DNA of 54,578 nt from a virus. Taxonomy: Duplodnaviria > Heunggongvirae > Uroviricota > Caudoviricetes. Below the pieces are notes generated by a model. It did no database searches. It saw only the letters and a program-made list of their open reading frames with translations, and had not been told where the DNA came from. The translations under genes and the position numbers were made by a program. The DNA is taken from IMG/VR virus record IMGVR_UViG_3300013383_000019. One strand, written 5' to 3'. Shown in pieces: positions 1-50,467 of this stretch (its first letter is position 1; each line of letters opens with the position of its first letter).

Positions 1-1104
1 CCGAAAGAAAAAGGCAAACTCCTCATCGACGAAGACACCCGCTGGATCATCGAAAAGATATACGCGCTTGCGCTGGAAGGAAACGGCTACAATGTAATCG
101 CAAGGTATCTGAGGACGTCCAAAGTCCCTACCCCGGGCTGGGTTGGCTATAGCCGCTACGGCGCGTATTCGCAATACTATGAGAACGCCGCCGAAGAGAA
201 GAAAAGCTTCTGGCAAAGCTCCGCCGTGCGTTCCATACTGATGGATGAAACATACATTGGAAATACGATTCATTACCGCAGGCAAAAGATTTCGTACAAA
301 AGCAAAAAACGAATTCACAACTCCGCTGATGAGTTTTACCGGGTAGAAAATACCCATCCGCCTCTTATATCGCGCGAGACATTCGAGCGGGTTCAGGAAA
401 ATATTTCACGGCGGCGTCGTTCCTGCGGGGATGGGACGCCCCAGCTTTTCGCCGGTCTGCTAAAATGTTCAACCTGCGGGAAAGCGTTGAAAGCCCGTCC
501 CTGCTATGCTCCCGACGATAAAGCCTACGTCTGCCGGCAATATTCGGAATTCGGTAAAGAACACTGCACCGCGCATTACATAAGGCAGTCTACCCTCTAC
601 AATTATGTGCTATCACGGATACAGTATTGGACCTCGACACTCGCTGGGAACGAAATAGATTTTGCCCAGGAGATTATGAATTCTTCGCGCAAAGCAACTC
701 AGTCTAGTGGGGACAAGGAGCAAGCGAAGCTTGATGATAAAAAGCGGCGTCTACGAAAAATAGACGGGATGCTCGCCTCACTCTATGAGGATCGCGCCGA
801 AGGAAACATCACTCCGAACAATTTCTCGACGCTGCTCAAAAAATACCAAGACGAGCAAACCGCCCTTCAAGAATTCATCGCTGCCGCCGAAGAAGCACAA
901 CGAGCTACCGACGAAACCCAAAGAGGTCTTAACGAATGGGCTAACATGGTCAAACGTTACACCCATCCAACCAAACTGACTATCCCGATGCTCAATGCGC
1001 TGATCGACAAAATCGTAGTCCACGATAGACGCTGTGACCAGAATGGCAAACCAACGCAGAAAATAGAAATTTACTACAAGTTCGCCGGGAAGCTCGACCA
1101 ATAG
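1..1104 (+). CDS. Large serine recombinase (integrase), 5'-truncated by window
   Basis: Frame +1 open from base 1. Recombinase-domain motifs, zinc ribbon (CSTC...C...C), coiled coil and DUF4368-like C-terminus (LIDKIVVH...IEIYYKF). Ends in TAG, with an in-frame TGA at 1117-1119. Confidence 0.9.
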   Translation, partial: PKEKGKLLIDEDTRWIIEKIYALALEGNGYNVIARYLRTSKVPTPGWVGYSRYGAYSQYYENAAEEKKSFWQSSAVRSILMDETYIGNTIHYRRQKISYKSKKRIHNSADEFYRVENTHPPLISRETFERVQENISRRRRSCGDGTPQLFAGLLKCSTCGKALKARPCYAPDDKAYVCRQYSEFGKEHCTAHYIRQSTLYNYVLSRIQYWTSTLAGNEIDFAQEIMNSSRKATQSSGDKEQAKLDDKKRRLRKIDGMLASLYEDRAEGNITPNNFSTLLKKYQDEQTALQEFIAAAEEAQRATDETQRGLNEWANMVKRYTHPTKLTIPMLNALIDKIVVHDRRCDQNGKPTQKIEIYYKFAGKLDQ

Positions 1105-3189: not shown

Positions 3190-3507
3190 TTAGCGCGCAA
3201 AAACAATGTAATTTGTAATGGACGACATTGTTCCACTGGTTGCGGTAAGCGTCAGTTTTGTGCCCGACAAAACCCACGTTGCATACGCGCCGCCATTCGC
3301 AGTTTTTGTAGTAACTGTTCCGTCTTTCGAATAAGACCAGATTTCACGAGAGTACCCACTCGACACACTGTAATCCGCCACGCCCACCCATTCAGTCGGA
3401 GCGAACCCCAGATCAAATGTGAAGTTGCCGCGGTCAGCAGTGCCAGCCTCAAAGAAAATTTTCGCGCTCCCGCCGCCACTGCCTGTGGCCAAAGGCTGCA
3501 TGATCAT
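3190..3507 (-). CDS. Hypothetical tail-associated protein (105 aa)
   Basis: AGGAGGG RBS, beta-rich Ser/Thr/Gly composition, lies in the tail fibre block. Confidence 0.7.
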   Translation of the reverse strand: MIMQPLATGSGGGSAKIFFEAGTADRGNFTFDLGFAPTEWVGVADYSVSSGYSREIWSYSKDGTVTTKTANGGAYATWVLSGTKLTLTATSGTMSSITNYIVFAR

Positions 3508-3518
3508 AGTATCCCTCC

Positions 3519-4280
3519 TTATACCGGTACGCGGATGTAGACGACGCCTTGGTAACCCGCACCAGCGGTACCGGTATTTGGCCCGTAAGTTCCCATAGAA
3601 CCCGCACCATATCCACCGCCGCCAGAACCATAAAATGTCGCAGCTTTGCCATTGATCGAGTGACGCGAACCGCCCTGCCCACCGCCATAATTACCACCAG
3701 CGCCAGCGTCGCCGATACCGCTTGTTGACTTTGCCCCGTTGCTACCGTTCGAGCCGCCAGCGCCGCCATTGTATTGCCAACTATTATCGTCGGAGGAATA
3801 ATTCACGCCGCCACCGCCGCCGCCTGCGCAATGACACCTAAAGTTTGTCGTGTCCCCGAAAGGGTATTTAGTTATCCCGTCGCCTGTGGGAGCGTTAAAG
3901 TTTGCGCCAATATTTCCACCGCCGCCACCTGTGCCCCCGTTGGCTGTTGTCGTGCCATTCGCACTGACAAGTGAGCCAACTGAGGTATTCCCGCCGGAAC
4001 CGCCTATGGCAACCACATAATCACAGTGAAGGGACTGAGCGTCTACCTGCGCGCAATACGCGCCAGCACCGCCGCTGTAATACGAGTAGGTTGCCCCGCC
4101 CCCGCAGCACCACACATCCACATTCTTCGCCGTCCCCGTCACGGTCAGCGTGCCAGAGCCGGTCAGCGTATACAGGTCATACGTCACGCCACCGGAAGTG
4201 ATCTGCTTGAGCGTGTAAGCACCGGTATAGGTGAACTCGGCCTTTCCCGCCTTGCCGGGCAAGCTTATATTCAATATCAT
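3519..4280 (-). CDS. Glycine-rich tail/receptor-binding protein, paralog 1
   Basis: Start MILNISLPG after AGGAG RBS (ORF track start at 4403 too early). GGGGA repeats, C-terminal GAGYQGVVYIRVP. Confidence 0.8.
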   Translation of the reverse strand: MILNISLPGKAGKAEFTYTGAYTLKQITSGGVTYDLYTLTGSGTLTVTGTAKNVDVWCCGGGATYSYYSGGAGAYCAQVDAQSLHCDYVVAIGGSGGNTSVGSLVSANGTTTANGGTGGGGGNIGANFNAPTGDGITKYPFGDTTNFRCHCAGGGGGGVNYSSDDNSWQYNGGAGGSNGSNGAKSTSGIGDAGAGGNYGGGQGGSRHSINGKAATFYGSGGGGYGAGSMGTYGPNTGTAGAGYQGVVYIRVPV

Positions 4281-6514
4281 GCCGTCACTCCTTCTATGAC
4301 CACCACGTTGTATGTTACCGCTTCGTTCGGCACATCGCCGCCGCAAATAAAAGTAAGCGTTCCTGCCGCCTGTGCCGTGCATCGAATCTCTGCCGTCTGC
4401 CATGCCTCAAAGCTTGCTTCCGCCGGCGATACCTGCACCAGATTATCAGCCGTCACATGGGTGGCGGTCACGGTCTGCGTTTTCTCCGTCGCATCCCATC
4501 CTGCCGCCGTCAGGCTTACCGTATAAGCATAGAGGGTCGGTATAGTCGGTTTTCCACTCAGGTCGCCGTATGCTCCGGATGTGGCAACCGTCGCAAGCCC
4601 CGTAACGTCCGCCGCCGTATGTGTGTGGCTTGCCGCAGCGTAATCCGTTCCTGCCGTCGCAGCCGTAATCCCCGTGGAAGTTCCTTTCAGTAGACCCGTA
4701 GCGGTAATCTTGTTCTGCTTTGCCGAAAATAGCGTAGAGTGCGCGGAAGAAGAGGTGTTGTGTGTGTTCACAGCACCGCTCGCCTCAGCCCCCACCTCGC
4801 TTGCCGTGTAGGCGGGCTTGCTTTCGGCTTTCGCCCATGCAGGAACCGTGGGATCGGTTTCTGTGTAGCTCGTCAGATATTTAGCGTCGTTTTCAAAACT
4901 GGACACCTTCGTGGGGACTGTGGGGATCGTGGGTTTGTTCTTGATGAAAGCGTCTCCGCTTGTCGCCGTCCAGTCCGCCTGTACATTTTTCTGCGCCCCG
5001 GCTGCGATGCCACCAAGCTTTGTCTTCTCGTCGTCCGTGTAGTCGTTGCTGGATAGCCCTTTGCCCGTTACGGCACTCACCTTCCCTGCCAGTGCGGTTT
5101 CCAATCCAGTGATGTCCGTCTGTGCATGGGTGTGGTCGGCCGGTGTAAAGGCGTCAGGTTTTCCTGTAACGCTCGTCCATGTCGGCGCAACGTTCTTCTG
5201 CGCCCCCGCCTCGATTGCAGCCAGTTTTTCTTTCTCCGCCGTCGTGTAATCGTTCGTGGAAAGCCCCTTGCCTGTTACCGCGCTTACTTTGCCGGACAGA
5301 TCGGACGCTTTCGCGTAATATGCCGGCAGCTGTCCGCCCAGCTTGGCCGCATCGTCCACAATTCCGTCGCCGTTCGCGTCGTAAATGGCTTTCTGCATGT
5401 CGCCAACAGAGCCCGCACCATCGCCGTCCGCGCCGTCGTTAATGGTCGCGGTCTTCGTGCCGTCTTTGTCTGTGATGGTCAGTGTCGTGACTTTGCCCGT
5501 CTTGCTTACTGTAATGGTCGGGGATACGCCGTCGGTACCCTTTGCGCCTTGGCTTCCTGTTTCACCCTTCGCGCCGGGAGAACCAGTATCGCCCTTTGGG
5601 CCCTTGATGTTTACGCTCGCCGGGTTCGTCAAGCTCTTGTTGTTCGTCCAGCTCAGCACGCCCGCTTCGCTTACCGCCGGGGTAAATGTCGCGCCGTCCG
5701 CGCCGTCTTTACCATCCTTGCCTGCCGCGCCAGTGTCGCCTTTCGCGCCTTGGTCACCCTTCGCACCCGTCGGTCCCTGCAGCTGTCCCTGATCCTGCCA
5801 GCCCTTTGACGTATCCCACATGTAGATCGTGTAAGGCGCAGCCGTACCAATATTGTAATAGTCTCCCTGCGCCGGTGCGGTTACAGCCGCCTGCAGCGCG
5901 CTCAGCGTCGCATAGGTTCCGAGCACGCGGAAGTTTTTACCGTCTTCGCCCTTTGCGCCGTCTTTGCCGTCCTTGCCATCTTTGCCAGGTGCGCCTGTGT
6001 CTCCCTTTGCTCCCGTGTCGCCTTTTGGTCCCTGCGGTCCCTGAGGGCCTTGCGCTCCGACGAATTCGCCGTTATCCAGTTTTGTCTGCACGGTCGCCAC
6101 AATTGCCTGCGCGTTGCTCAGCGCGCCTTCGAGTTTGTCCAGCGTGTCCGCCACGGGGCTGTCCGGCGTTTCCGCCTGCCCGATCAGACTGCTGGCCACC
6201 GTCGCCGTATAGACCGCGCTCTTCACCCGCTTGTCGCCGACCAGAGCGCGGAGTTCTATCCTCATCTGGCCGGGGATAGAAACGTCCGCGTCGCTAATCG
6301 TAATAATTCTCGCGCTGCCGTCTGCGCTGCATTCCTTCAGGTACGCCCCAAGGTCGCCCTGCCGCTGCATCGCGCATACAATACTCGCGCCGGGGTATTC
6401 GGCGAGGACTTCGCCGCAGTCAAAGGCAATCTGCCTTGTTCCGTTTTCCCCGCGCCGCCCGATCAGGCCAAGCTCCTGTTCCCGCTGGGAGAACGCCGCG
6501 TTAATTGTTATCAT
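4277..6514 (-). CDS. Tail fibre / upper-baseplate-like protein with collagen-like G-X-Y repeats (745 aa)
   Basis: BppU-like N-terminus, GPQGPKGD repeats, repeated KGLS(T/S)NDYT modules, C-terminal LTAAGW...QAAG.LTF module. Confidence 0.85.
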   Translation of the reverse strand: MITINAAFSQREQELGLIGRRGENGTRQIAFDCGEVLAEYPGASIVCAMQRQGDLGAYLKECSADGSARIITISDADVSIPGQMRIELRALVGDKRVKSAVYTATVASSLIGQAETPDSPVADTLDKLEGALSNAQAIVATVQTKLDNGEFVGAQGPQGPQGPKGDTGAKGDTGAPGKDGKDGKDGAKGEDGKNFRVLGTYATLSALQAAVTAPAQGDYYNIGTAAPYTIYMWDTSKGWQDQGQLQGPTGAKGDQGAKGDTGAAGKDGKDGADGATFTPAVSEAGVLSWTNNKSLTNPASVNIKGPKGDTGSPGAKGETGSQGAKGTDGVSPTITVSKTGKVTTLTITDKDGTKTATINDGADGDGAGSVGDMQKAIYDANGDGIVDDAAKLGGQLPAYYAKASDLSGKVSAVTGKGLSTNDYTTAEKEKLAAIEAGAQKNVAPTWTSVTGKPDAFTPADHTHAQTDITGLETALAGKVSAVTGKGLSSNDYTDDEKTKLGGIAAGAQKNVQADWTATSGDAFIKNKPTIPTVPTKVSSFENDAKYLTSYTETDPTVPAWAKAESKPAYTASEVGAEASGAVNTHNTSSSAHSTLFSAKQNKITATGLLKGTSTGITAATAGTDYAAASHTHTAADVTGLATVATSGAYGDLSGKPTIPTLYAYTVSLTAAGWDATEKTQTVTATHVTADNLVQVSPAEASFEAWQTAEIRCTAQAAGTLTFICGGDVPNEAVTYNVVVIEGVTA

Positions 6515-24632: not shown

Positions 24633-27600
24633 TCACTTGGATAACCTTATGCCGCCCACAGACTGAACCCGTCCGGATTTTTCCAGCACATGGTCGAAGA
24701 ATTTTTCGGCCAGTTCGTCATAGTCCGTGTCGTTGTCCAGCTTGTCCACCTGGATTACAACGTCGCCGAACGTCAGCGTCGGCTGAGAGCGGGAATTCGT
24801 CTCCGCGCCAAACGCCGGCATTGTCGGTACGTTAATTGTTTTGATCGCGTGCAGCGTGTCGATCATGTCCTCAAACAGTTCGGTCTGATAAGGCGAAAGG
24901 ACGCGCTCCGGCTTGCTCGGCGTACCGTCCAGCCATGCAAGGCCGGTCTTTGTGTTCAGGCCGCCCGAAGCATATTGCGATACGGTTGTTTTCCCATTAC
25001 CGCTTGCCGAGGGTCTAAGCGTGTCCTGGCTCGAGTTCCGAGGCGCGCTGCTGGTGCTGCTATAGCTTCTAATGGAACTGATAGCACCGCTGAGCATTGT
25101 TTGGTACTGAGCGCGCACCTGCGCCTGCCCAGCCGAGCCTCCCGCCGCCGCCAGGTGATTATTCAGCCAGCGCTTAGCGATTCTCTTAGCCGCGCTGTTT
25201 GCGGCAGACCTAGAGCTATATCCGGTATACACCTGGCCGTCAAACGTAAAAGACCAGAGCGTCTTAGGCTTCGAGCTGCCGTTAGGCTTTTGAGTAGAAC
25301 CAGGGCTGGGACTCGGACTCGGGCTGGAATCATATCCACCGTCATAACTGCCGCCATTACTCCCCGACGCCGGCATCACCGGCTGGTAATCATAGCTGCT
25401 GATATCCACCGCAACATCCTTGTAGGCGTTCTTCAGGTTCTCCAGCTGCTCTTTCCACGCGTCGACGTATGCCTCCGCCTGCAGCTTGCCCGCCGCCTTA
25501 TAGTCCGCACTGTTGTCCATCAGGAACTGGATAATCGCGTCGTCGCCCTTCGAGATAATTTCTTCAATTTCGTCCCAGTATGTGACGATCGCGCCGCGCA
25601 TGTCGTTGAGCATATCCTGCCAGCCGTTTGTGATATCCGTGCGCGTGGCGTCCGTGGAGTTTTTATACTCTTCGCTGTTCTCCTTCAGCCACTGCAGAAT
25701 TTCCTCGTCGGACTGCGCCATGATCTTCTGCACTTCTTCAATGAAATTGCGCGGGTTCGCCAGCAGGTCTTCGTAGTATTTTTCAATGTAGTCGGCGTAT
25801 TCTTCCGTGCTCGTGATCTGTTGATCGATCGCGTCCTGCTGGGCCTCGACTTCCTTCTCCGCCGTGTCCCATGCGATTTCGTCGCGCAGGTCTTTAATCT
25901 GCTCCTGCAGTTCCATCGCTTCTTTGCGCCGCGTCGAGTCGGCCGATATGCGCGCCAGTTTCGCTTCCAGCTTTTTCAGTTCAACCAGCTTTTCTTCTTC
26001 TTGCTGCGCTTCCTTGCGCGCGTTCAGCTGTTCCTGCAGCGCCTGCTTTTCTTCTTCCAGCGCGTCCTTTTTCGCGTCCGCCGTCTCAAGGATTTCGTCG
26101 CGTTCTTTTTCGTATCGCGCCTTGATGATATCGAGTATCGCTTCCTCTGTTTCGATCGTGCCCTGCAGCATGCGCTCCTTCAGCTCTTCCCGGTCCTCGA
26201 TCGCTTCCAGAATCGTGTTCCGCAGGTCGATCTCCATCTGCCGGATCTTGTTCTTCCATTCCTTAATTTCCTTGTTCAGTGCTTCGATATCGTTCCGGTT
26301 CTGCTTCAGCTGCTTGCTGTATTCCATGTGCTGCTGCTGCAAGCTCTTCAGATCGTCCGCCGCCTCAGAATAACCTTCCGCGGAGGTACTCATCGCGTTG
26401 ACTTCCGCCCGCTTGGCTTCCATCAGGCTTTCGATCTTCGAGAGGTTCGCCTGTATCGTATCCGTGTTAGCCTGTATCGCCTGCTTTTCGTATTCGATAC
26501 ATTTCAGCACGCCCTGAATTTCGCCGCGGCTTTCGAAGTACGCTTTCTCCAGCTCGATGATGGCTTTCTTGTGGTTCTGAATCGTATCAATCTGGTCGAG
26601 CACGTCCAGAAACCGCTCAATCTCGGAGGGGCCGCTGTTCCCGCTGCTGCCACTGCCTCCGCCGTAAGAACTGCTGGGGCTGCGGCGGCTGCTTCCGCCT
26701 CCGCCGCCACCACTGCGTCGGCTGCTGGAACCGCTTCTTCTGCCGTTGCTCTTCGAGCCAAGACCGGTGACGTTTACCTTGCCATTTTTGTCCAGGCTTA
26801 CAGTCGCGCCGTTTACGCTTGCCAGCTGCTCAATAAGCCCAAGAATAGCATTGGCAGTCTCATTGCCCTCAGCCGCCAATGCCTTTAGCTGCGAAATCCA
26901 TGTGCTGGGGTCAAGACTGATTCCTGTCAGCGTCAGCATTGAGCTGATCAACCATTCGACGCTGCTGGTCGCCATGTCCGTGTCCCCCGCCAGCAATGCC
27001 GCCGCCATAGCCAAATCATATTCAGAGTTGATCGCGAATCCGCAATAGTCCGCCAGATTCGCCAGTGCCGTAGTGTATGCGTCGGTGCCAGCCTGCGTCG
27101 TGTCCATCACGGTCGCAAGGTCTGCCTGCGCCAGCGCCAGGTCGTTCAGCTTTGTCCCGATGCCGGCGATGGATTTCAGATACTCCGCCTGGGACTTCCC
27201 GCTGTTGCTGATTACATCGACGGCTTCCTCCCAGATTTTATTCTGCTTGGCAAGCTGCGTGCCTTCTTTTGTCAGCCCCTCACGCGTCAGTTTCTTCGCC
27301 GCGTCCAGCGCGTCTTCGTGTGCGTCCGACATGTCGCCCAAACTGGTCACATAATCCTTGATCGCGTCCGAGCCTTCCAGCAATGTCTTCTGCATTGTTT
27401 TGCCGAGGCTGTTCCATACGGCGATAAACGCCTCCTCCGAGCCGGTGTCCAACGCCTCCTGAATGTTCGCCAAGGCCGCATTGTATTCCGTCGTACCGTT
27501 CTGCGCCTCATAAAGCGCGTCTGCTGTTTCCTGCAAGCTCCCGCGGCATTGTTCAAGCATTTCCACATAAGCTGATACAACGTCTTCCCAATCACTGTCC

Positions 27601-30600
27601 GGGTCGAAAAGTACGTTCCAGAAGCTGCCGTAGTCCTCGCGGAAGCCTTCTGCCAGCGTGGCGTTTTCCGTGTACATCTCGTAGATCTTTTCCCGCAGCA
27701 TTTCAATGGCTTCGGCTTTATCCTCCAGATTTGCCGAATCCATGAATACACCCGCCAGATCGTTGATCTGCCCAGAGTAACTGTTATCCGCCGCGGTCTG
27801 CGCTTCCGCGTTCAGCTTTTCGTTTTTCGCATATTCGGCCTGCTCCGCAAAGAAATCTTCCTTCGACGCCGAGGAAATATTCGCCAGCATTTCATAGACC
27901 TTTGCCAGTGCTTCCGCCCACGCACCCGTTTCGTCGGTCACTTCTACCGTCCCGGCGAGGATATTGTAAAGTTCAGGATAGGTCTGCGCGAAGCTCTCCT
28001 GCATGTCAGAAGACCATGTGTTAAATTCCTTCCGCGCGTTTTCCAGTCCGCCCGAAAGTCCCATCACGCCATTGGCGAACGTCGGTACCTGACCTTCCGT
28101 GAACGCCTTGTCCAGCGCGCCCACCTGGTCGGCAAACCCGGCCTCTTTCGCTTTCGCCAGCGCTTCCTGCGCTTTCAGATTTTCCGCCATCTCCGAACGC
28201 TCTTCGGCGTACGCCACCGTGGTTCCGTTGATAATACCCTTCAGGTAGCTGTATGCGTCGCCTTCCTTCATCAGCCCTGCGTAGATATCGCCCAGCATCG
28301 GGTAGGCTTTCGTCATCTCTTCCACCAGGTCTGCGTTCGCCGCATGCGCTTCATCCATTGCGGTCTTGAAAAGGCTCACGTCAAATTTCTTCGTGTCCGC
28401 GTTCATCGATTTGCTCAGAATGTCGCTCGTCGCATCCCGGTAATTGTTCTTCGCCGCGTCGGATGCTTTCTGTTTCTCCAGCCATTCCGCGTAGTATTTG
28501 CCGAAGCTCCCCATTTTTTCGGCCGCCGCATCCGCGGCCTCCCCCACGGCCGTAACCGAAGCCACCGCCGTTTCTTTCCACTTAACGAATTCCTCTTCAT
28601 TATAGTCGGGGAGCAGGTCGATCTTCGCGCCTTCAATTTCACCGTTCTCAACTTGCGCGTTGTATTCGGAAATATATCCGTTGATACCGTCGACGATTTT
28701 CTTGTAGCCGTCATAATCCACAGCTTCCGGCGCTTTCAGCATCTCGTTGTATTCGTCCATCAGCTTGGTGAATTCCGGCGAGGAAGCGAGTTCAGCTAGT
28801 GTGTCTCTGCACGTCGTGAACATTTCCGTGACCGAACTGAGCAATTCCTCTGTAACCGCTGCCGGGTTCTGTTCATACAACTTCTGCAGGAATGTAAACA
28901 GCTCGTCGCTGTATTCGCTCAGCGCGCTCTTGAAGTTGTCCGGGAGCACGTCGGCCATATCGGCTCCTTCAAGATTTTGCTTTACCGCGCCCACATAACT
29001 TTTAACCAGAGAAGCGGCCTTATTCAGCATTTCTTCCGTCAGCGCGTCTGCGTCTCCGCCAACTGAATTCCGCATCGATTCCACGATCGTGCCTATGAAC
29101 GAATCGATATTCTTCGTAATTTCCGCCGGCACATCCATAAAGCTGCTGTCCTGTCCGAACGCGTTCAAGCTCTGTTCAATGCTGTCCCACGCGTCGGAAA
29201 TACCGGCAGCCGCTTTCTCTGCGCTCGCCCCAACCAGCGTGTTGAGGTTCATCATCTCCATGTTGATGTCGTTACTGAGCTTATTAACGTATTGGCTCGC
29301 TTCAAGATATTCGTCTGCTATCGAATAATAATTCTCGGCGTCCGCAGTCATACCGCCCCACCATTCTCGGTTTTTAGCGCCCAGACTGCTGCTTTGAATA
29401 TACATATCCTGCAGATAATTTGTGAACCCGCGTTTAGATGCTTTCGCCGGATCTTCCAGCCCCTGTGTATATTCATCCCAGTATTTCAGTACATTCTTCT
29501 GGAGATCAACCTTGTCCATCTCCGCGTACGCGTCCTTAACCGTCTGAACCTGCTCCGCGAACTTGCTGAACGCGTCCAGCTGCGAGATCGAATTCTGCAG
29601 GTCCACCTGTTCCCGCAGTTCCTCGTTCATCGCCCGGATAGCTTCGCTGCCGCTGTTGTACTGGCCTTCCAGTCCTTCCAGCTTTGTCTGTAAAGTATAG
29701 GAGGTTCCGGACAACTGCGCGAATATCGCGTCCATCCGCTCCGTGTCGCTCGTCGTCTTGTTTTGCTTTCCGGCGAGTTTCGTGTATTCATCGATCAGCG
29801 GGGAGATCGTCCCGGTGTAATCCTTCAGCGTGCTCAGCTGTTCGCTGTAATCCGGCAGCTCTACCGCAGACGCTTTTTTGATCGCGCCGGTAACGGCCGT
29901 GATAACCGTAACAAGCCCCGCCAGCGCAGTGACGATCAGCCCGATCGGGTTCGAGGCCGATGCAATGCCAGCAACAAGCCCAATGCTTTTGATTGCCTTA
30001 ATCAGCGATACGATCTTGGTGAGCACCACCACAACTGCTCCAAGCGCAGCTGCCGCCGCGGGGATTGTAACGTTAAACCCTCTCAGGGATTCCGTGCCGC
30101 TCGCGATCAGGTCGACAAATCCGGCCAGTCCGTCATAAGCGCCTTTCATCCAGTCCGCGCTCAGCAGTCCATAAAGGCTTTCCAAAGACGACTTCAGCCG
30201 TCCCTGTGCCGCCTCAACCGATTCCATATACACGCTGTATTTCTGCGTCGCTGTGCCGGCCGCGTTCAGCGCGCCCTCATAAAGTTCAAACGCACGGCTG
30301 CCGCCCTCTGCGCCCTTAGCCATGTCGCTCATCAATGCGAGGAAGGTGTTCTGCTGTCTTGCGCCGGCGATGGTGGTCGAGATATACGCCTTCTGTTTTG
30401 CGTCCAGCGTGTCCCATTGTTCGGCAATTTCCGTCATGATGTCGGACATGCTGCGCCAGTTGTTCTCTTCGTCCAGCAGTTCAATACCGAGCGTGCCCAG
30501 CGCTTTTGTCACGTCGTTGATCTGGGTCGCGTCCTCTTCATTAAAACCCTTCTGCTTTATGGAGTGCATGCGCGCCATCAGAGAGTTGAACGCCGTACCG

Positions 30601-32641
30601 ATTACCTCAGGTGCCTGCCGCGTTTTTTCGCTGACGGTCGCAATATACGCGCCAAGCCATTCAAAGCTCACGCCAAATTCTTCGGCGGACGCAGATGCTT
30701 TCTGCATCGCCACACCAATTTCATCGGCCTTTCTGTTACTTTTATGACCTACAAATATTCTGTAGGCGGATAGGATTTTCATCCTACCTCTGCAACTTAA
30801 ATAAGGTATGTTGCAGAACAGACTGTATCTTCATCCCTAAATAGGGAGTCCACCGTAGCTACATCATCACTGATGCAACATTCAGTCGTTACCGCGCTTA
30901 ACACGCATCGGAGTTACCCTCCTCAGGGCTTTCCCCGAACAAGTGGATTCTTTTATAACACATTACTGTGTATACGGGCTATTTGTCGTTAACCCGATGC
31001 CGATTCGTCTCCCAAGTATGCAAACACATCTACGACCTTCTGCGCAGACAAGTCCATTGTATTGGTGGCTGCCGTAACCAGTTCAGCCGCCTCTGTAAAT
31101 TCCAGCGAACTGATCTTCGCGTATTGCGTCGCCGCCTTGATACGCCGGTTTGTTTCGTCCTCATCCAGGCCCTGCCGCCAGAATTCCACGGCCGCCTTCG
31201 CAATGTCGGTAGAAGATACGCTCATCTCTTTTGCCAGCGTGCGGTATTCCGCGCCCAGCTTTGCCGCCTGCTCTTCGCTGTACCCCGAAACAATTCGGAT
31301 CTCGTTCATCAGATCATAGTATTCCGACGCGTAGGAGATCGCATCCTGGAACATGTTCTTAAGCGTATTGGTTGTCCATGTAATCGCCTGTTCTGCAAGC
31401 TTGGTTCCAATTTTGTCAAGGAACTGCCCGTTAATATCCAGCATTTCGCCCTGCTTGGAATACAGGTCGTTGACCTGGTGCAACGTGTTCTCAATTGCAG
31501 TAAGTTCTTCTTGGGAAAGCTGGAGCTTTTTCAACTGCTCGGCTACCTCATCGGTGGCTTTCTTCGCCTCATCCCCGACTTTCGCCCACGCTTCCATGCC
31601 GTCCTTATCTTTGTTCGCGTAAGACCTGCCGATACCGCTCAGCGCGGTCTGCATTTGCGCTAACGCCTTCTGTGCTTTCGCCAGCTGCTCTGCCCCGGCG
31701 TTTCCAGTGTTCGTGTTCTGCTTTGCCAGCACGTCGGAAATTTTCTGCTCCAGCGTAAGCAGCTGCTGTTTCCGTTCGGTTGTCAGGTCAAGCTTTTGAA
31801 TTTCCTCGCTCTGCTGGGTCAGCAGCTTTTTAGACGCTTCAATCCGCTCCTGCCAGTAGGACGTATCCTGTCCGCTTTTCTGTGCGCTGTTGTAGTTGCG
31901 GACATACTCGGCCAGCCGCTTGTATTCCTCCGTCATCTGCTTCAGGCCGGTTTCTCCGCTGCCGCTTTCTTTCAGCGCGCTCTGATATTGCTTGATGATT
32001 TTCGCGCGCTCTTCGCTCAGCTTATTCAGGTTTGAAAGCTGTTTCGCTTCGTCGCTCAGCGTCGAAGACTGTTCCCTGCTTTTTGCGATCAGTTCGCCGT
32101 ATTTCTGGATTTCCGAGTCCAGCCGCTTCGCCTGGTCGCTGCCCTCCGCAGCAGAAAGCCGCTGCGTTCGCAGAGAATACATTTCCTTAAGATAGCCGAT
32201 CTGTTCCTTATAAAGCGCGTTCGCCTTATCGATTTCCTTTGCGAGCTCACCCTTGGTTGTGGTCGTCCGGCTCAGCTATTCTCCCTGCTTCCGAACCTCC
32301 GTTATCGCAGCCCCGAGGTCTTTATAGCCTTTGGTGGTCTGCGTCATGCTGCCGTCTTTCGCTAGCTTGGAGGTGACGCTCATCACCCGTTCAATCTCGG
32401 TTGTCGCGCCGGCAAATCCAGTAGCCATTTCCTTCCCGGCCTGCCCGCCCGTCTTGGCCGCGCTCTGAACCTCGTCCTTGAGCCGCGTCAGCATCGCCTT
32501 AATCTGCTTCTCCACTACGTCGCTCATGTTCAGGTTCACGCCGGTGCCAATAGACTTCAGAAGCTTATTGACTCCCTCGACGTCCTTATTGAGCTTGCTC
32601 AGATCCAGCCGCAACGAGGCGATATATTTTTCGTCCGCCAA
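24633..32641 (-). CDS. Tape measure protein, about 2581 aa: exon 32641-30992 (TAG at codon 122, 32276-32278) plus exon 30728-24633
   Basis: ORFs 32276..32641, 30989..32182 and 24633..30782 join: KQGE*LSRTTT readthrough is in frame, and splicing restores AYLGDESASG|ADEIGVAMQK in the TP901-type tape measure domain. Confidence 0.9.
30729..30991 (-). ncRNA. Group I intron (263 nt, no ORF) in the tape measure gene
   Basis: P1 CGGGU|UA with UAGCCCG (U-G at splice site), P7 GACUG/CAGUC (GAAGAUACAGUC), terminal G, frame restored. Confidence 0.9.
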
Positions 32642-34825: not shown

Positions 34826-34852
34826 ATAAAAAGCGCCCGAAGGCGCTCATTG
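34826..34852 (-). terminator. Terminator of PBECR4 cassette 2
   Basis: GAGCGCC-TTCG-GGCGCTT plus T-run. Confidence 0.8.
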
Positions 34853-34882
34853 AAATAATTTCGTTTATATTATTTATGGGAT

Positions 34883-35515
34883 TCATTTTTCAAAATCAGG
34901 TTTCGGAAGATAAGAGAATTCTGCGGGGTAAATAATTCTATCCCAATTGACTTTCCTCGCGTAGTAGACATTCTTCGAATAACTGCTCTTCGACGCCCGC
35001 ACAAAAACGGCAATAACTTGATACGGGGAAACAACACGTTCCCGTATGTCGTCGTTCAAAAAGGTATTCGGCACATATATTTTTCTTTCCGCGTCAAGCT
35101 TAAATCCTACGCAAGCACGACTGCTGCCTATAAGTTTCTCTGTGTATAGACTTATTCCGCTGCCATTGAAGTCCCCCCCCATCATTTTTGCATTCAAGAA
35201 TTGTCCCGAAAATGCATACGATAAGATTCGCAACTTCAGCTCAGTTGTCCCGTCTTGAGCAAAATCAAAATCGTCCGGACTTAATTTTTTCGCCAGGCAA
35301 CGATCATAAAAAGTATTTGCATTGTATTGCTGCGTCCCAAGAAGCTTCACACCTGTTAAATGCAAAAAGTTCGTTTTATCAAACGCAACTTCCACATAAA
35401 TAACGTGATTGCTAGACGGTTTATATCCGAGGAACAACATCTGCTTGTTTTCATAATTCATATGATAATTTTCAGCAGCGGAACAGATCGCTGCAATCGC
35501 CTGCGATTTATGCAT
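34883..35515 (-). CDS. PBECR4-like predicted ribonuclease, copy 2 (about 210 aa)
   Basis: A.NY......K..LF......EV.F...NFLHLTGV, F..DGTTELKL and YVPNT.L..DIR motifs; start may be 35515 or 35536. Confidence 0.8.
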   Translation of the reverse strand: MHKSQAIAAICSAAENYHMNYENKQMLFLGYKPSSNHVIYVEVAFDKTNFLHLTGVKLLGTQQYNANTFYDRCLAKKLSPDDFDFAQDGTTELKLRILSYAFSGQFLNAKMMGGDFNGSGISLYTEKLIGSSRACVGFKLDAERKIYVPNTFLNDDIRERVVSPYQVIAVFVRASKSSYSKNVYYARKVNWDRIIYPAEFSYLPKPDFEK

Positions 35516-35590
35516 AGCTTTTGTTGATTCCCCCATAAATTTATGGGAAGACCGCAACACCGCAGCATTGCCGGTCTTCCCAATTGTCCA

Positions 35591-35722
35591 GTTTTTCTGT
35601 TGCCCGCCAACTCACGGCTCCTTCCGTGCCAAGCGCGTTCTGCCGTATCATTTCTGGTTTTTCTGTTGCCAGCCAACTTACAGCTCCCTCCGCACCAAGT
35701 ACGTTCTGCTGCATCAATTTCG
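35591..35722 (-). repeat. Two tandem 66-nt repeats with compensatory base changes (candidate RNA antitoxin)
   Basis: Units 35591-35656 and 35657-35722; stem UACGGC/GCCGUG versus UGCAGC/GCUGUA; both end AACAGAAAAAC. Confidence 0.85.
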
Positions 35723-35771
35723 GGTTTAGGTGCTGAACACACCAGCGGGATGCCGCCCGCTCTCCAAATCC

Positions 35772-35800
35772 ATTATATGAAAGACATTAGCTTTTGTCAA
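35772..35800 (-). promoter_or_regulatory. Consensus sigma-A promoter of PBECR4 cassette 2
   Basis: TTGACA-17 bp-TATAAT. Confidence 0.9.
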
Positions 35801-35842
35801 CTGACAAAAACAGGAAATTATATTACAGTTATAATATTATCC

Positions 35843-35875
35843 AAAAAGAAAGGGGACCTGATTTCTCAGATCCCC
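35843..35875 (-). terminator. Terminator after the tail tube gene
   Basis: GGGGATCTGA-GAAA-TCAGGTCCCC plus TTTCTTTTT. Confidence 0.85.
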
Positions 35876-35886
35876 TCCTAAAAATC

Positions 35887-37335
35887 TTACGCCCAGTCGA
35901 CAGTTGTCTCCTCGGTCTTGGTAACGACGTTGCCGTTTGCGTCGAACGGCTCATAGGTCAGCGACCACATCTTGCCGTCTGCACGCTTCGGGTCGATGGA
36001 GCTGAAGGTAACGCTGTTGGTTGCAGCTGTCTTATCATTTATCTTCAACATGGTTCGCTATGCCATGCCCGCGTCTTTACGCTGCTGCATCTTTATATAT
36101 ACATGCAGATGAGACTATATCTTCCTCCTCTTTCTCAGGTAGGAGTCTTCCCATTTGGAGCGCCAATCACTTGCGCCCTACTCCCTTGCGGGATAGTCGT
36201 TAGGCTTTTATGGAATTAATCCTTTTTAGCACGGTGAGTTATCTTACCGGCGCTGCATCAACCGATAAGACTTTCTCCGTTTAAGGAAGGTTTTGTCAAG
36301 CACATTTCTGTGCAGGGAACCTATCTGTTAAGCTCGTGTCGAAACCCGGTGCCGCGCTTACGCGGACACGGTAAAGATGAATCTGAATTTCACCCTTCTG
36401 GGTAGATTCGGTGCAGTCAGTACCACTGGAATACCTTATGTTCACACAAGGTCGCTACTTCTTGTGCCGCTGCGGTGTACAACTTCGCAGCCGCTGCATC
36501 TTTATATATACATGCAGAGCAGACTATATCATGCTCCAACTTGGAGCCTCACCATTTCGAACGCCAATAGCTTGCGCCCTACTCTACTCGCTTCTTCGGT
36601 TTCCCTATGCTTTCGATAGTCGTTAGAGTTTCACAGTCAACGCTTGGTTGATTGATTACTACGGCAGGTTACCCTCATCGAGGGCTTTCCCCGTTTAGAT
36701 GAGTTATTCGATAAGGATCTCTCCTTAAAGGGTCAATTCAGTTTAACCGGCCATGTGGCGTACACCTCGCCCTTGGACATCGGGGTGGTTGTGCTGATGC
36801 CGATGCGGGTCGCGCCCACGCTGCGGCGCTTGTAAGAAACGCGGATGGTTTCGCCTTCGGTGTAGTCGCCTTCGGCGAAGGTGATCTCCGTCTTGGGTTC
36901 AGTGTCAGCTGTGCCCTTGGTCACCGCAACGGCAAATTTACCCACGGCAGCGGCTTCCGCCCGCTCCATATTACGGATCGCGACGGACTCAACCTGCACC
37001 TCGTAGGGGATTGTAATCTTGTTTTCCGTAACGTCGTAGCGCTTTGTCTCGAACTTACCGTAGTCGCCGGTCTGATCAGTCACCGCGTTCGCCATGGTAA
37101 ACATATCCATGGTAAACTGGGCGGAAGCAAAGCTCAGTTCCAGCGTCTTGTCGGTATCAATAACCGCCAGCGGGAAGAAGCTGTGACCGCCGTTGATGGT
37201 GATCGAGTTAGATGTGTTCGAGAAGTTTGTGCTGGTCTATTCGTCGAAGTTGAACACTGCGCCATCGCAGCGGATGAAGTCAACGTTTGCAACGTCGGCG
37301 ATATAACCATCATATTTCGGGATGTAAATGGCCAT
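35887..37335 (-). CDS. Major tail (tube) protein, 280 aa: exons 37335-36745, 36433-36331, 36035-35887; TAG at codon 33 (37237-37239)
   Basis: AGGAGG RBS; MAIYIPKYDG...FNFDE*TSTNF; spliced product TWPV|YSSGTDC...GFDTS|YKTAATNSVTFSSIDPKRADGK; exons total 843 nt. Confidence 0.88.
36036..36330 (-). ncRNA. Group I intron 2 of the tail tube gene (295 nt, no ORF)
   Basis: P1 GAGCU|UA with UAGGUUC, P7 GACUA/UAGUC (GAAGAUAUAGUC), terminal G. Confidence 0.9.
36434..36744 (-). ncRNA. Group I intron 1 of the tail tube gene (311 nt, no ORF; junction ambiguous by 1 nt)
   Basis: P1 GGUU|AA with UUGACC, P7 GACUA/UAGUC, terminal G; shares TCTGCATGTATATATAAAGATGCAGC and GTAGGGCGCAAG blocks with intron 2. Confidence 0.9.
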
Positions 37336-43250: not shown

Positions 43251-44837
43251 TTACCCATCTGTGCTGGGCTTCGGCTGCTTGCCCGTTATCGCGTTCGCCG
43301 GATCGCTCGTGCGCTCCGATTCGTCCACTTCAGGCCGTCCAACCTTCCCCTCGATCAACGGCTCGTCCGGTTCCGTATTGGAAACCGTGTCATTGTCTGT
43401 GCTGTTGCCTGCGTCTGTTTCTTTCTTCGGCATCAACACCTGCGCATTGCCGCTGTTATCCTCTGTTTTCTTCCGCTCGACTTCCTGATCGTAGTCATAG
43501 CCGTAGGTTTGCAGCAGCGTCTTGTCGGACACCACGCCCTTCTCCCACAGCTTCATACACGCTTCGCGGAAGTCCTTGTCGCCAGAGAGGTCGACCGGCG
43601 GGAATGTAAACAGAGGGATGCTGGATTCCGCGCTATGCGGGATAGAAGCCGCGCCGCCCGCGCCGTTCAGCCTGCGATTGATTTTGTTCATCATCTCGCA
43701 GAAGCTGTCCTTCGCCTGACGGATACGCATCGCCGCCGTCTTCATGCTGACCTGCGCGCTCGCGAACGTCGAGCCGTCTTCCGACCGGCCGCTGACGATC
43801 ACGCCGCTGATTCCGCCGGCATTCAGGATTTCGGCGTTCACGCCCTTGTACTTGTCGTACTCGAACATGTCGTCCATCTTCGGCTGGATCACTTCTGCCG
43901 CGCACCAGTTATTGGTAACCGCCAGTGCGGTGCCCGTCATGGCGCTTTTGAAGATGTTCGACACCTGCCGCAGCGCGTCGACTGTCGGGACCACTTCATT
44001 CTTCGGGTCGCCGTATTTTACATGGAGAAAAGCCATCGCGCCCAAGTTCAGCAGCGAATCTTCATACTGCGAAATAATTTCCTTCTTGGAAAACGCGCGC
44101 AGGCATGTCGCCACCATCGGCACCGCATACCGCACCCAGTCTTCCTTCAGGTCCTGCAATACGAACGTATTCGCCGGATTCAGCTGGACATATTCCTTGC
44201 CTTCCTTTACGGCCGTCTGCACTTCTTTGGGGAAACCGCGCAGCCGAACGTCCAGCAGCTCGTCGTCCAGGTAATCCTTTTTTGCTTTAACGCCTTCGCG
44301 CTTCAGGTCCTGCGTAATGGTGCGGCAGTTGAATTCCAGCACCGGTTCTCCATCTACCATGACGTTCGCAATACGGATCATGTGTACCGGCAAAGTAATA
44401 AGAGAACCATCATCCATCAGGTATACATATACGTTTCCGTATTTGTAATATTGGAGGAAGATGCTCCTCATCTTATCTTTCAAATGAATCCTGTCATAGT
44501 AGTCAAGATATTTCTTCTTAACCTTCTCATTCGCGCCAACAAGTCGAAAGTCATCCGCAATACTAAACGGAGTGTAGACTTCCTTGATAATGCCGCGATA
44601 CAAAGGATCGGCGTCTACGTAATAATCGCTCAGCTGAAACAGACTTGTAATATTTGTCTGTTTATCTCTCAGTATCGTATCATAGTCATAACTCGCAAGA
44701 TCACCTGTATAGGTAATGTTGCGGTTATTGAACGTAATGCTTACATCGTCTTTGGCCGCGCCCACCGCGATTTCCCTCGGAGGGGCGAGCGAAGACTGCT
44801 GAGGCGAACGGTTCCATAGCCTGTTAAAAAATCCCAT
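43251..44837 (-). CDS. Portal protein (528 aa)
   Basis: Follows TerL; AGGAGG RBS, MGFFNRLW start, YY.YGNVY motif. Confidence 0.8.
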   Translation of the reverse strand: MGFFNRLWNRSPQQSSLAPPREIAVGAAKDDVSITFNNRNITYTGDLASYDYDTILRDKQTNITSLFQLSDYYVDADPLYRGIIKEVYTPFSIADDFRLVGANEKVKKKYLDYYDRIHLKDKMRSIFLQYYKYGNVYVYLMDDGSLITLPVHMIRIANVMVDGEPVLEFNCRTITQDLKREGVKAKKDYLDDELLDVRLRGFPKEVQTAVKEGKEYVQLNPANTFVLQDLKEDWVRYAVPMVATCLRAFSKKEIISQYEDSLLNLGAMAFLHVKYGDPKNEVVPTVDALRQVSNIFKSAMTGTALAVTNNWCAAEVIQPKMDDMFEYDKYKGVNAEILNAGGISGVIVSGRSEDGSTFASAQVSMKTAAMRIRQAKDSFCEMMNKINRRLNGAGGAASIPHSAESSIPLFTFPPVDLSGDKDFREACMKLWEKGVVSDKTLLQTYGYDYDQEVERKKTEDNSGNAQVLMPKKETDAGNSTDNDTVSNTEPDEPLIEGKVGRPEVDESERTSDPANAITGKQPKPSTDG

Positions 44838-44851
44838 CGCCTGTCGCCTCC

Positions 44852-46540
44852 TTAAAATTTTGTAACCAGCCCAATGCACTCCTCAGAGGAGCCCTGGATG
44901 TATTTCTTTTTGCGCAGTTCTTCCAGCCCACTGATATATAGCAACGCCATGCCCAGCGAACTGTACCGGTCTTTGTGCTGCGTTGATTTTGCCACGTCGT
45001 ACACGACCGCGCCCGCCTGCGTCGCTTTCGCAACCACGTTGCCCATCTCGATCTGGAGCGCGTCCGCTTCGATGAAAATCGCTTTCTCTTCCTGCGTCAG
45101 TGCTTTGCTTTGCGTTTCGTCATCATCTTCATCCCGCAGCATCACCTTGTTCCCAAGCACATGGCGCGAGTTAACCGGCAGCTCAAGCGATTCCTGCTCG
45201 AGAGCGATTGTTATGGAGGATACGATCTGCTGGTTTACCGTGATATTCGCAATAACCGGATGCAATAGCGGCACCGCATTGTGGATAATAGATTTCTCTG
45301 TGTCCATTACCAGCGGCGGATATTCCTTCCCATTTATGTCCACCCACGGCTGTGCCAGGAATTGCGGGAAAGCGTCACCCAGGCCGCGATGGTCGAATAC
45401 AACCTTGACTGTCCGCGGGAATTTCACCAGCAACTTTCGTACCTCGCCAGCCAACGCGTCCAGCCGTTTGCCGTGAAAAGATCGAATGTAGACAAGTTTC
45501 TTAATGTAGCCTCCATCGTCGCATTCGATCAATTTGATTACCGTAATAACCGCGTTGTCTGCATACTTCGAAGCCGACGTAGCCAAGTCGACGCCAATTA
45601 TGTAGTCTGATGTGCTCGATTTCGGCATTGCCACCTCGACGTCTTTCAGCACGCGGCATTTCTCCGTCAGTTCGTATGGGAACAAACTTCCCGCCTCAGC
45701 GCCGACAAAAATCGAATCATACTCCATTGCGAATTTGGATTCTTCCATGTCCCGGCGTTCCTTCTCGAAAAACGCCATAGGAGAAATCCCGACACGCGCC
45801 GCCGCCTCATAGTTTAACGCGCAGGCAAAGCAGTCTTTCTCGCCCTTTGCCATGTTCCGCAGTGTCCCGGTGAAAGCGTCGAAAAAATAATTGCTCTTCA
45901 GACACGCACTGGTGATACTAATCATCTTGGATGGATAGTCCGGTATCCCAAGCTGTACGCAGTTGTCGCGCGTCGTATTTCGAACCGGCTTCGCGATGGC
46001 TTCAAGGTCTTCCTTTTTTACCTCGGGTGCTTCGTCGATGACAATAACTTTCGCACGGTTTCCGCGGAATGTACCAATTGAATAGCTCTCAATTTTGCTT
46101 CCGTTCCGCAGCCGGCATACACCCTTGTTGCGGGCAAGCTGTACGGCGGAATGCCCGTTTGTTTCAATTTCCCGCAGTATATCCGTGTTCCGCACAAAGT
46201 AGTCGTCGATCTTTTTGATAACCAGCGTTGCCTGCTCCGCTGTGCCGCTGATGACCGCAATCAGGCTTCCGGGGTACAACACCCCCATCGCCAGACAGCA
46301 CACCGCCGTCAGCCATGTCTTACCGAAGCCGCGGCTCTGCACAAAATAGATTGTCTCGCGGTTTCCAAACATCCGGGCTTCGACCTTCTGGACATCTTTA
46401 AGCTTTATCTTGAAGTAGTCCTCGATGAAAACATCCAAATGTGTTCGCCAATACCAGATCTGCTCCTCCCAGCCGGGATCATTTTTGATCTCACGAATCT
46501 GGGTTGCTTTCATGATTCTGCTGTGGTCAATTGGGTTCAT
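44852..46540 (-). CDS. terL: Terminase large subunit (562 aa)
   Basis: Walker A SRGFGKT, Walker B VIVIDEA, nuclease IGVDLA and KDRYS motifs. Confidence 0.92.
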   Translation of the reverse strand: MNPIDHSRIMKATQIREIKNDPGWEEQIWYWRTHLDVFIEDYFKIKLKDVQKVEARMFGNRETIYFVQSRGFGKTWLTAVCCLAMGVLYPGSLIAVISGTAEQATLVIKKIDDYFVRNTDILREIETNGHSAVQLARNKGVCRLRNGSKIESYSIGTFRGNRAKVIVIDEAPEVKKEDLEAIAKPVRNTTRDNCVQLGIPDYPSKMISITSACLKSNYFFDAFTGTLRNMAKGEKDCFACALNYEAAARVGISPMAFFEKERRDMEESKFAMEYDSIFVGAEAGSLFPYELTEKCRVLKDVEVAMPKSSTSDYIIGVDLATSASKYADNAVITVIKLIECDDGGYIKKLVYIRSFHGKRLDALAGEVRKLLVKFPRTVKVVFDHRGLGDAFPQFLAQPWVDINGKEYPPLVMDTEKSIIHNAVPLLHPVIANITVNQQIVSSITIALEQESLELPVNSRHVLGNKVMLRDEDDDETQSKALTQEEKAIFIEADALQIEMGNVVAKATQAGAVVYDVAKSTQHKDRYSSLGMALLYISGLEELRKKKYIQGSSEECIGLVTKF

Positions 46541-49977: not shown

Positions 49978-50050
49978 TGGAGCCGAGGGGATTCGAACCC
50001 CTAACCTCTCGCGTGCAAGGCGAGTACGCTGCCAATTGCGTCACGGCCCC
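49978..50050 (-). tRNA. tRNA-Ala(UGC), CCA not encoded
   Basis: Cloverleaf, G3-U70, anticodon TGC. Confidence 0.95.
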
Positions 50051-50133
50051 AAACGCCGGTTTCCCGGCGTCCAGAAAGGAGGTATTCAATGAAAAGCCGG
50101 CGTCGAGGCAGCAACTCTCCGCCGACACGATGC

Positions 50134-50209
50134 TGGAGCCGTCTCTCGGACTCGAACCGAGCGCCTGCGCTTTACAAGAGCGCTGCTCTGCCAAATGAGC
50201 TAAGACGGC
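50134..50209 (-). tRNA. tRNA-Thr(UGU)
   Basis: Cloverleaf, anticodon TGT, encoded CCA. Confidence 0.95.
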
Positions 50210-50211
50210 AA

Positions 50212-50282
50212 AGCGCGATACGGGATTTGAACCCGCTACAACGCCTTGGAAGGGCGTTATGTTACCGTTACATTAATCGCGC
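50212..50282 (-). tRNA. tRNA-Gly(UCC), CCA not encoded
   Basis: Cloverleaf, anticodon TCC, U73. Confidence 0.93.
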
Positions 50283-50396
50283 GGGTGAGGTTTGGCTCTT
50301 TGCGTATAACGCATTATCCCAGCCTCGAATTGGGGTGGCTTACTTTACTTCCAGCCGCCTTAGGAAGAATGGATTTGGCTCTAGGCGAATGAGCCA

Positions 50397-50467
50397 TTGC
50401 GCAGCCGGGATTCGAACCCGGATTACAGGAACATGAATCCCGCGTGCTGCCTTTACACTACCGCGCG
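50397..50467 (-). tRNA. tRNA(CAU), initiator-like
   Basis: Anticodon CAT, C1-A72 mismatch, G run at 28-30 rather than 29-31, CCA not encoded. Confidence 0.8.

Follow-up and report, generated by a model that had tools for sequence, protein, structure and literature searches.

What does a structured RNA with two tandem repeats do directly in front of the gene for a predicted RNase, between the head and the tail genes of a phage? The question is raised by a stretch of 54,578 nucleotides (here, the window), which is a temperate tailed phage or prophage with almost all of its genes on the minus strand, lysis genes among them. A preliminary description had listed, in order, a promoter, short hairpins, two 66-nt repeats, a long hairpin, a nuclease gene and a terminator; all of these are present on the minus strand, and their coordinates are collected in Table 1 together with the main phage genes. 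As the cassette has a promoter of its own and is flanked by terminators, it has the anatomy of a moron of a temperate phage. The terminator on its upstream side ends the preceding phage gene, and the PBECR4 cassette is thereby insulated.

Table 1. Coordinates of the PBECR4 cassette and of landmark phage genes in the window
Feature	Position	Strand	Evidence and remarks
Integrase	226-1104		
Tail fibre	4277-6514		
Tape measure	24633-30782		
Cassette-end intrinsic terminator	34831-34848	-	Terminator scan
PBECR4 gene, 210 aa, intact	34883-35515	-	PF18813, database protein P0001, homologues
Hairpin with c(UGCG)g loop, 37 nt	35545-35581	-	Sequence and fold
Tail T2 (CUGGAC)	35586-35591	-	Covariation; pairs with L0, closing the fold
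Repeat unit 2, 66 nt	35592-35657	-	TRF, covariation; tail T1 (CCAG, 35654-35657), variable hairpin V2 (35613-35647), small hairpin S2 (35599-35611) with loop L2 (CGGG, 35603-35606), A-run (35592-35598)
Repeat unit 1, 67 nt	35658-35724	-	TRF, covariation; tail T0, variable hairpin V1 (35679-35713), small hairpin S1 (35665-35677) with loop L1 (CUGG, 35669-35672), A-run AGAAAAA (35658-35664)
A0 (UAAA) and tail T0 (CCCG, 35721-35724)	35721-35728	-	Covariation
S0, leader hairpin GGUG/CACC	35729-35743	-	Covariation; loop L0 (GUUCAG, 35733-35738)
P0, 5' hairpin	35744-35761	-	Sequence and MFE fold
Sigma-70 promoter	35772-35800	-	12/12 consensus matches
Preceding-gene terminator	35849-35878	-	13-pair hairpin then T-run; closes upstream phage structural gene
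Portal	43251-44879		
Terminase	44852-46540		

The surroundings hold several features worth recording in their own right. Two tandem group I intron matches (RF00028), both under the Rfam threshold, lie on the minus strand at 36092-36340 (38.1 bits, E 5e-8) and 36501-36754 (35.7 bits, E 2.5e-7). Their cores are ~85-90% alike and they sit between ORF 36733-37110 and ORF 35887-36051; it is likely that these twin introns split one phage structural gene into three exons directly upstream of the cassette. Inside the first of them, a 43-nt stretch (36168-36210) has 95% identity to a region annotated as an I-HmuI/HNH endonuclease in the Pseudomonas phages ZC03 and ZC08, and is probably conserved intron core. 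A weak group I intron match at 30790-31001 on the minus strand (23.2 bits, E 0.005) fills exactly the 200-nt gap between the tape-measure-like ORFs 30989-32182 and 24633-30782, and the tape measure gene, too, may be split by an intron. The phage genome further carries a cluster of four tRNA genes (49978-50467, minus strand).

Transcription of the cassette would begin at a promoter that deserves the name of consensus it had been given, with TTGACA at 35800-35795, a spacer of 17 nt and TATAAT at 35777-35772; relatives have a promoter at the same position. The hairpin P0 that follows is also found in relatives, with a sequence that varies from locus to locus. Tandem Repeats Finder (TRF) reports the repeats proper as 35591-35727 (period 66, 2.1 copies, 83% matches, score 190), and both units terminate in CAAC-AGAAAAAC. 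Between the RNA and the gene stands the hairpin with the UGCG loop, 29 nt from the PBECR4 ATG. Next to it comes AUAAAUUUAU, a poor U-tract, and the hairpin is absent from the list of the terminator scan. We read it as a leaky terminator or attenuator. At this position relatives have either the same kind of hairpin, its loop being CUGCGG or CUACGG, or else a plain intrinsic terminator, and in many of them a full intrinsic terminator stands where the window has its hairpin with a weak U-tract. As for the gene, the open reading frame spans 34883-35560. Translation probably begins with the ATG at 35515, in agreement with P0001 and the homologues, and the resulting 210 aa are identical to P0001.

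The protein is the more easily named of the two parts. Its assignment to PBECR4 (PF18813), proposed earlier, is borne out at E 2.2e-26 and 93.8 bits against a cut-off of 27, over profile positions 2-187 of 188. PBECR4 is predicted, from the name of the Pfam family alone, to be an RNase with the BECR fold. The AF2 model is confident (pLDDT 84.7), and a Foldseek search of the PDB with it gave no match at E 0.001 or better; a wide VIA-align comparison reached at best Z 4.4, for a chain that is unrelated, and no solved RNase or type III toxin was returned. When the PBECR4 profile was run against all PDB sequences at E up to 10, ToxN, CptN, TenpN and AbiQ were not found. Csm5, a RAMP protein (6ifk_H), came up marginally in the same search (E 0.05) near the YVPNT.L..DIR motif, probably by chance. 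PADLOC gave no match, PHROGs gave a single match at 0.007 to a family of unknown function, and the matches in the ESM Atlas were all PBECR4 clusters.

A tree of 42 PBECR4 proteins falls into two deep clades (SH-aLRT 99). The residues conserved at 90% or more in both are only F45, H52, L53 and G55; in the window's clade K94, P149 and D156 are invariant too and R158 is nearly so, and the window protein keeps all of them. One clade is linked to RNA of the window type and the other to the Rfam family drum (RF02958), so that a single change of RNA class explains the distribution. This co-segregation of RNA class and protein clade is compatible with co-evolution and is no proof of it, as kin share labels and shared descent alone could explain the pattern.

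What holds the RNA together is best seen by covariation. The structure that was tested on an alignment of 57 sequences has five hairpins (S0, V1, S1, V2 and S2) and three pseudoknots: L0:T2, between the S0 loop and the 3' tail; T0:L2, between the tail after S0 and the S2 loop; and L1:T1, between the S1 loop and the tail past the A-run. Its 38 pairs are 87.5% paired, with 313 cells in which both sides have changed; none of 500 shuffles scored as high, and sliding the partner by 1-3 columns brought pairing down to 49% at most. For the crossed pseudoknots the figure is 99.6%, with 65 double changes; T0:L2 is 99.1% paired and includes one pair with 22 double changes, and the crossed pairing L0:T2 is 100% paired. 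Local pseudoknots, in which a hairpin pairs with its own tail (L0:T0 and L2:T2), were tried as well and rejected, being 68.9% paired, which is the shuffled mean. In each motif-derived locus one S1/S2 motif or more was fixed by the search pattern, and for that reason the small stems carry less information than the V stems and the pseudoknots do.

The window RNA is itself a natural compensatory variant. It has GUUCAG:CUGGAC at L0:T2, where most relatives have GCUGA:UCAGY, so that both sides have changed and pairing is kept; its other two pseudoknots are CCCG:CGGG (T0:L2) and CUGG:CCAG (L1:T1). The compensatory changes that had been reported between the two repeats are real and go beyond the outer stem, where UGCAGC/GCUGUA in one copy stands against UACGGC/GCCGUG in the other and an A-U pair becomes G-C; there is a further one in the inner stem and another in the tail-loop pair (CCAG:CUGG versus CCCG:CGGG). 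Covariation thus supports a single closed fold in which the leader hairpin and both repeats are joined by the three pseudoknots. The 66-nt repeats of the preliminary description exist and covary, but they are not independent units, being locked with the leader hairpin into one fold. In most relatives the units measure 50-54 nt, and some have longer ones of 66-68 nt.

The A-runs also take on another meaning. They are the loops or strands that cross each pseudoknot, which makes the cleavage in A-rich linkers that was earlier carried over from known systems an assumption rather than something seen in the sequence; the A-runs may be structural and not cleavage sites. Were the RNA cut at the three A-runs all the same, the topology implies that the units would stay paired as a symmetric dimer, the 5' tail of each in the loop of its partner.

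As had been suggested, a covariance model could be built from the relatives. This model (R1; 134 positions, from 57 diverse copies of the RNA) finds the window at 35584-35745 with 91.7 bits and E 3.8e-16, and gives no second credible match across the 54.6-kb window. A search of the window RNA against Rfam matched no family.

How general is the pairing of RNA and gene? Starting from the protein, homologues with 31-64% identity are found in metagenomes. The five loci from IMG/VR that were found in this way (36-48% identity) all share one leader. Its promoter is followed by a variable hairpin and by one of the form GGUG..CACC; then come two units, each with GUUGGCNGRCAAC-AGAAAAAYC at its end, and finally a hairpin whose loop is CUGCGG or CUACGG. 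More distant carriers are an Erysipelothrix phage (33%) and a plasmid of Enterococcus durans (26%); on a megaplasmid of Lachnospira eligens (23% identity) the leader RNA is seen more weakly.

A survey chosen without regard to the RNA was made by searching PF18813 in 301 Lachnospiraceae genomes, and it was present in 62 of them. The 420 nt upstream of 38 surveyed genes held a promoter, a structured RNA and a terminator in every case (38/38). By R1, the RNA of the window type precedes PBECR4 at 26 of 46 loci fetched through the protein; at 16 of the 46 the same position is taken by drum (56-105 bits). The family rule is therefore a structured partner RNA and not tandem repeats, as drum is not repetitive. 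The earlier expectation that homologues would have upstream repeats holds in part: homologues with 23-64% identity do carry the RNA, but the 16 drum loci are without repeats. At five loci fetched from this survey the match is interrupted by stop codons, and the survey lists many partial matches as well. At three other loci (L181, L156 and L007), structured or repeated RNAs that match neither R1 nor drum stand before PBECR4, which hints at further classes of partner RNA.

Starting from the RNA, a search of species-representative genomes for a 22-nt motif gave at least 120 stretches that contain it; they belong mostly to Lachnospiraceae, Oscillospiraceae and other Clostridia, and a few to lactobacilli. 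The motif is also present in 18 IMG/VR contigs. Among the 145 motif groups listed, 84 have PBECR4 at most 1.3 kb downstream; ~60 of these genes are intact (175-250 aa). About a dozen groups have a truncated gene 3' of an intact RNA. At ~30 loci the RNA is full-scoring (74-130 bits; at some of them it is present twice or three times) and PBECR4 was not detected, a count to be read as an upper bound since a divergent gene may be nearby: the narrow PBECR4 HMMs that were used miss the drum clade, for example at L015, where Pfam found PBECR4. In some loci the place of the gene is occupied by an IS transposase or by hsdM, and among phage contigs with the motif and enough downstream sequence the gene-less RNA copies are the majority. 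These copies may be mere remnants.

Two loci deserve a separate mention. L097, a genome contig, has three full-scoring RNAs in a span of 3 kb (545-711, 935-1101 and 3254-3421; 87-90 bits) with no PBECR4 detected nearby. At L015:1632-2760, the repeat RNA in a variant form (59 bits), without a gene of its own, is followed by a second promoter, drum (71 bits) and a PBECR4 of the drum clade, which puts both RNA classes side by side.

We consider that the cassette is probably a prophage-borne, type III-like toxin-antitoxin or abortive-infection module of RNA antitoxin and RNase toxin, kept for the defence of the lysogen or as an addiction system. This reading draws on the tight linkage of RNA and gene, their co-segregation on the protein tree, decayed genes beside intact RNAs, RNAs without a gene, and carriage by mobile elements, the carriers including IMG/VR phages, the Erysipelothrix phage and the Enterococcus plasmid. 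Truncated or stop-containing PBECR4 genes and gene-less RNAs fit the signs typical of toxin genes. Also on the side of type III membership, the antitoxin-like RNA has pseudoknots, though these join units and do not lie within one; the poor U-tract of the window's hairpin speaks against it.

The steps that we infer for such a module are as follows. The consensus promoter would transcribe a structured RNA of ~180-220 nt, made up of the leader hairpin and two 66-nt units and locked in the closed fold by L0:T2, T0:L2 and L1:T1. Some transcripts would end at the hairpin at 35545-35581, leaving the RNA in excess over the mRNA, and read-through would yield PBECR4, a predicted metal-independent RNase. 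Bound to PBECR4, the RNA, possibly after being cut into its 66-nt units, would keep the enzyme inactive. Should the supply or the stability of the RNA drop, free PBECR4 would be toxic, cleaving cellular or phage RNA until growth stops; infection by another phage, a shut-off of transcription or loss of the prophage might be the trigger. Linkage and co-segregation bear on direct binding of the toxin by the RNA only in an indirect way. A search of sequencing runs for this stretch listed no RNA run. Cutting into units cannot in any case be the mechanism of the whole family, since the drum clade is without repeats.

Could the RNA instead be a cis-acting leader that sets the expression of PBECR4 by termination and read-through, possibly with feedback from the protein, and neutralises nothing? 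The ~30 full-scoring RNAs that stand alone, with several copies at some loci, are difficult to place in such a scheme, which would otherwise account well for an RNA that is always upstream on the same strand, for the intervening hairpin or terminator and for a gene without a separate promoter. RCd22, the RNA of AbiF, too lowers expression in cis (bioRxiv 10.1101/2025.04.15.648962). However, the terminator stem lies outside the closed fold, which leaves no apparent anti-terminator alternative, and the sister RNA drum was judged an improbable riboswitch by Weinberg et al. (PMC5737381). Taken together, we think a purely cis-acting leader unlikely.

We find it quite improbable that RNA and PBECR4 form an active ribonucleoprotein, with the RNA as cofactor, guide, sensor or decoy substrate and not as inhibitor. 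It is true that so conserved a fold is elaborate for a mere plug, that two unrelated RNA classes are each bound up with one protein clade, and that Weinberg et al. took drum to be a candidate for some sophisticated biochemical function (PMC5737381). Yet the RNA has no guide-like variable region, its variable stems covarying just to keep pairing, and decayed genes by intact RNA together with gene-less RNAs suit an antidote better, because a cofactor without its enzyme would be useless.

Next to no credence is left for the idea that the repeats encode a repetitive peptide or are a functionless duplication by chance or slippage: although a 58-aa ORF (35541-35717) spans them and the database gene call P0009 is translated through such repeats, either origin is ruled out by changes that are compensatory in RNA stems, by the match of the covariance model and by unit lengths that keep no reading frame.

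The antitoxin reading can be carried further, to a version that we regard as possible but doubtful. PBECR4 with its two classes of partner RNA would then be a fourth RNA-antitoxin lineage, in which the toxin has no relation to the ToxN-like fold; two 66-nt units, as a precursor or cut at the A-runs, would close through reciprocal tail-loop pseudoknots into a two-fold symmetric RNA ring holding two toxins, and the gene-less RNAs of phages would be decoy antitoxins that disarm a PBECR4 defence of the host.

To our knowledge, only three families of type III toxins are established, all of one fold. A fourth with an unrelated nuclease, if the RNA-antitoxin reading is true, would mean that the neutralisation of toxins by RNA arose on more than one occasion. 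PBECR4 and, by extension, the orphan RNA drum would then have a function, and the biology of gut Clostridia and their phages would be richer by one module for defence or addiction and perhaps by a phage counter-measure. The closed RNA with its three pseudoknots is an attractive structural target, as each helix has natural compensatory variants.

It remains to set the locus beside the systems that it most resembles. By the criteria of Blower et al. 2012 (PMC3401426), a type III locus consists of a promoter, tandem repeats, a palindrome or terminator and a toxin gene; the window has the first three in that order, with PBECR4 in the place of the toxin gene, and the layout had rightly been called type III-like. 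Pseudoknotted, A-rich repeat RNAs are a hallmark of ToxI and CptI (PMC3401426, PMC4627078). In our literature search PBECR4 was mentioned in passing, and we found no paper tying it, or the window RNA, to an antitoxin role.

The likeness to CptIN is close. It too is found in gut Clostridia; its promoter is followed by roughly two RNA repeats in tandem, then by a hairpin terminator and the toxin gene, and its RNAs form pseudoknots with A-rich strands. CptIN assembles as a ring of two RNAs and two proteins (PMC4627078), where we have a closed two-unit RNA fold. However, CptN has 155 aa and a ToxN/Kid-like fold, whereas PBECR4 has 210 aa and matches CptN neither in sequence nor in fold; the CptI repeat is 45 nt long and unrelated in sequence to the window RNA; and the pseudoknots of CptI lie within one unit, whereas those of the window link the units and the leader. 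That PBECR4 is CptN was accordingly rejected, the CptI repeat and the CptN sequence being unrelated to the locus.

ToxIN/AbiQ and TenpIN share with the locus their layout and their carriage by mobile elements, and phages can carry antitoxin-like RNA (PMC3401426; PMC12283969). Their toxin families and RNAs are unrelated to those of the window, ToxIN having 5.5 repeats of 36 nt, and for them toxicity, RNA processing and phage defence have been demonstrated, whereas the present system is read from sequence. As far as this can be tested, the locus lies outside ToxIN, CptIN and TenpIN; a very distant kinship is compatible with the missing fold match.

The sister system is drum, in which a structured RNA with an A-rich end and a 3' terminator stands directly before a PBECR4 of the other clade. 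It is a single RNA of 112 nt without repeats, and the window RNA is not a member of it, as RF02958 gives no match at 35450-35850 even at E 10. When it was described in 2017, its association with nearby genes was noted but left unexplained, and no function was named (Weinberg et al., PMC5737381).

A further system for comparison is AbiF/RCd22 of a Clostridioides difficile prophage, which is likewise prophage-borne and has a non-coding RNA with two conserved motifs upstream of its gene. AbiF is Abi_2/HEPN-like and not a PBECR4, and RCd22 is unrelated to the window RNA. [quoted passage not shown]
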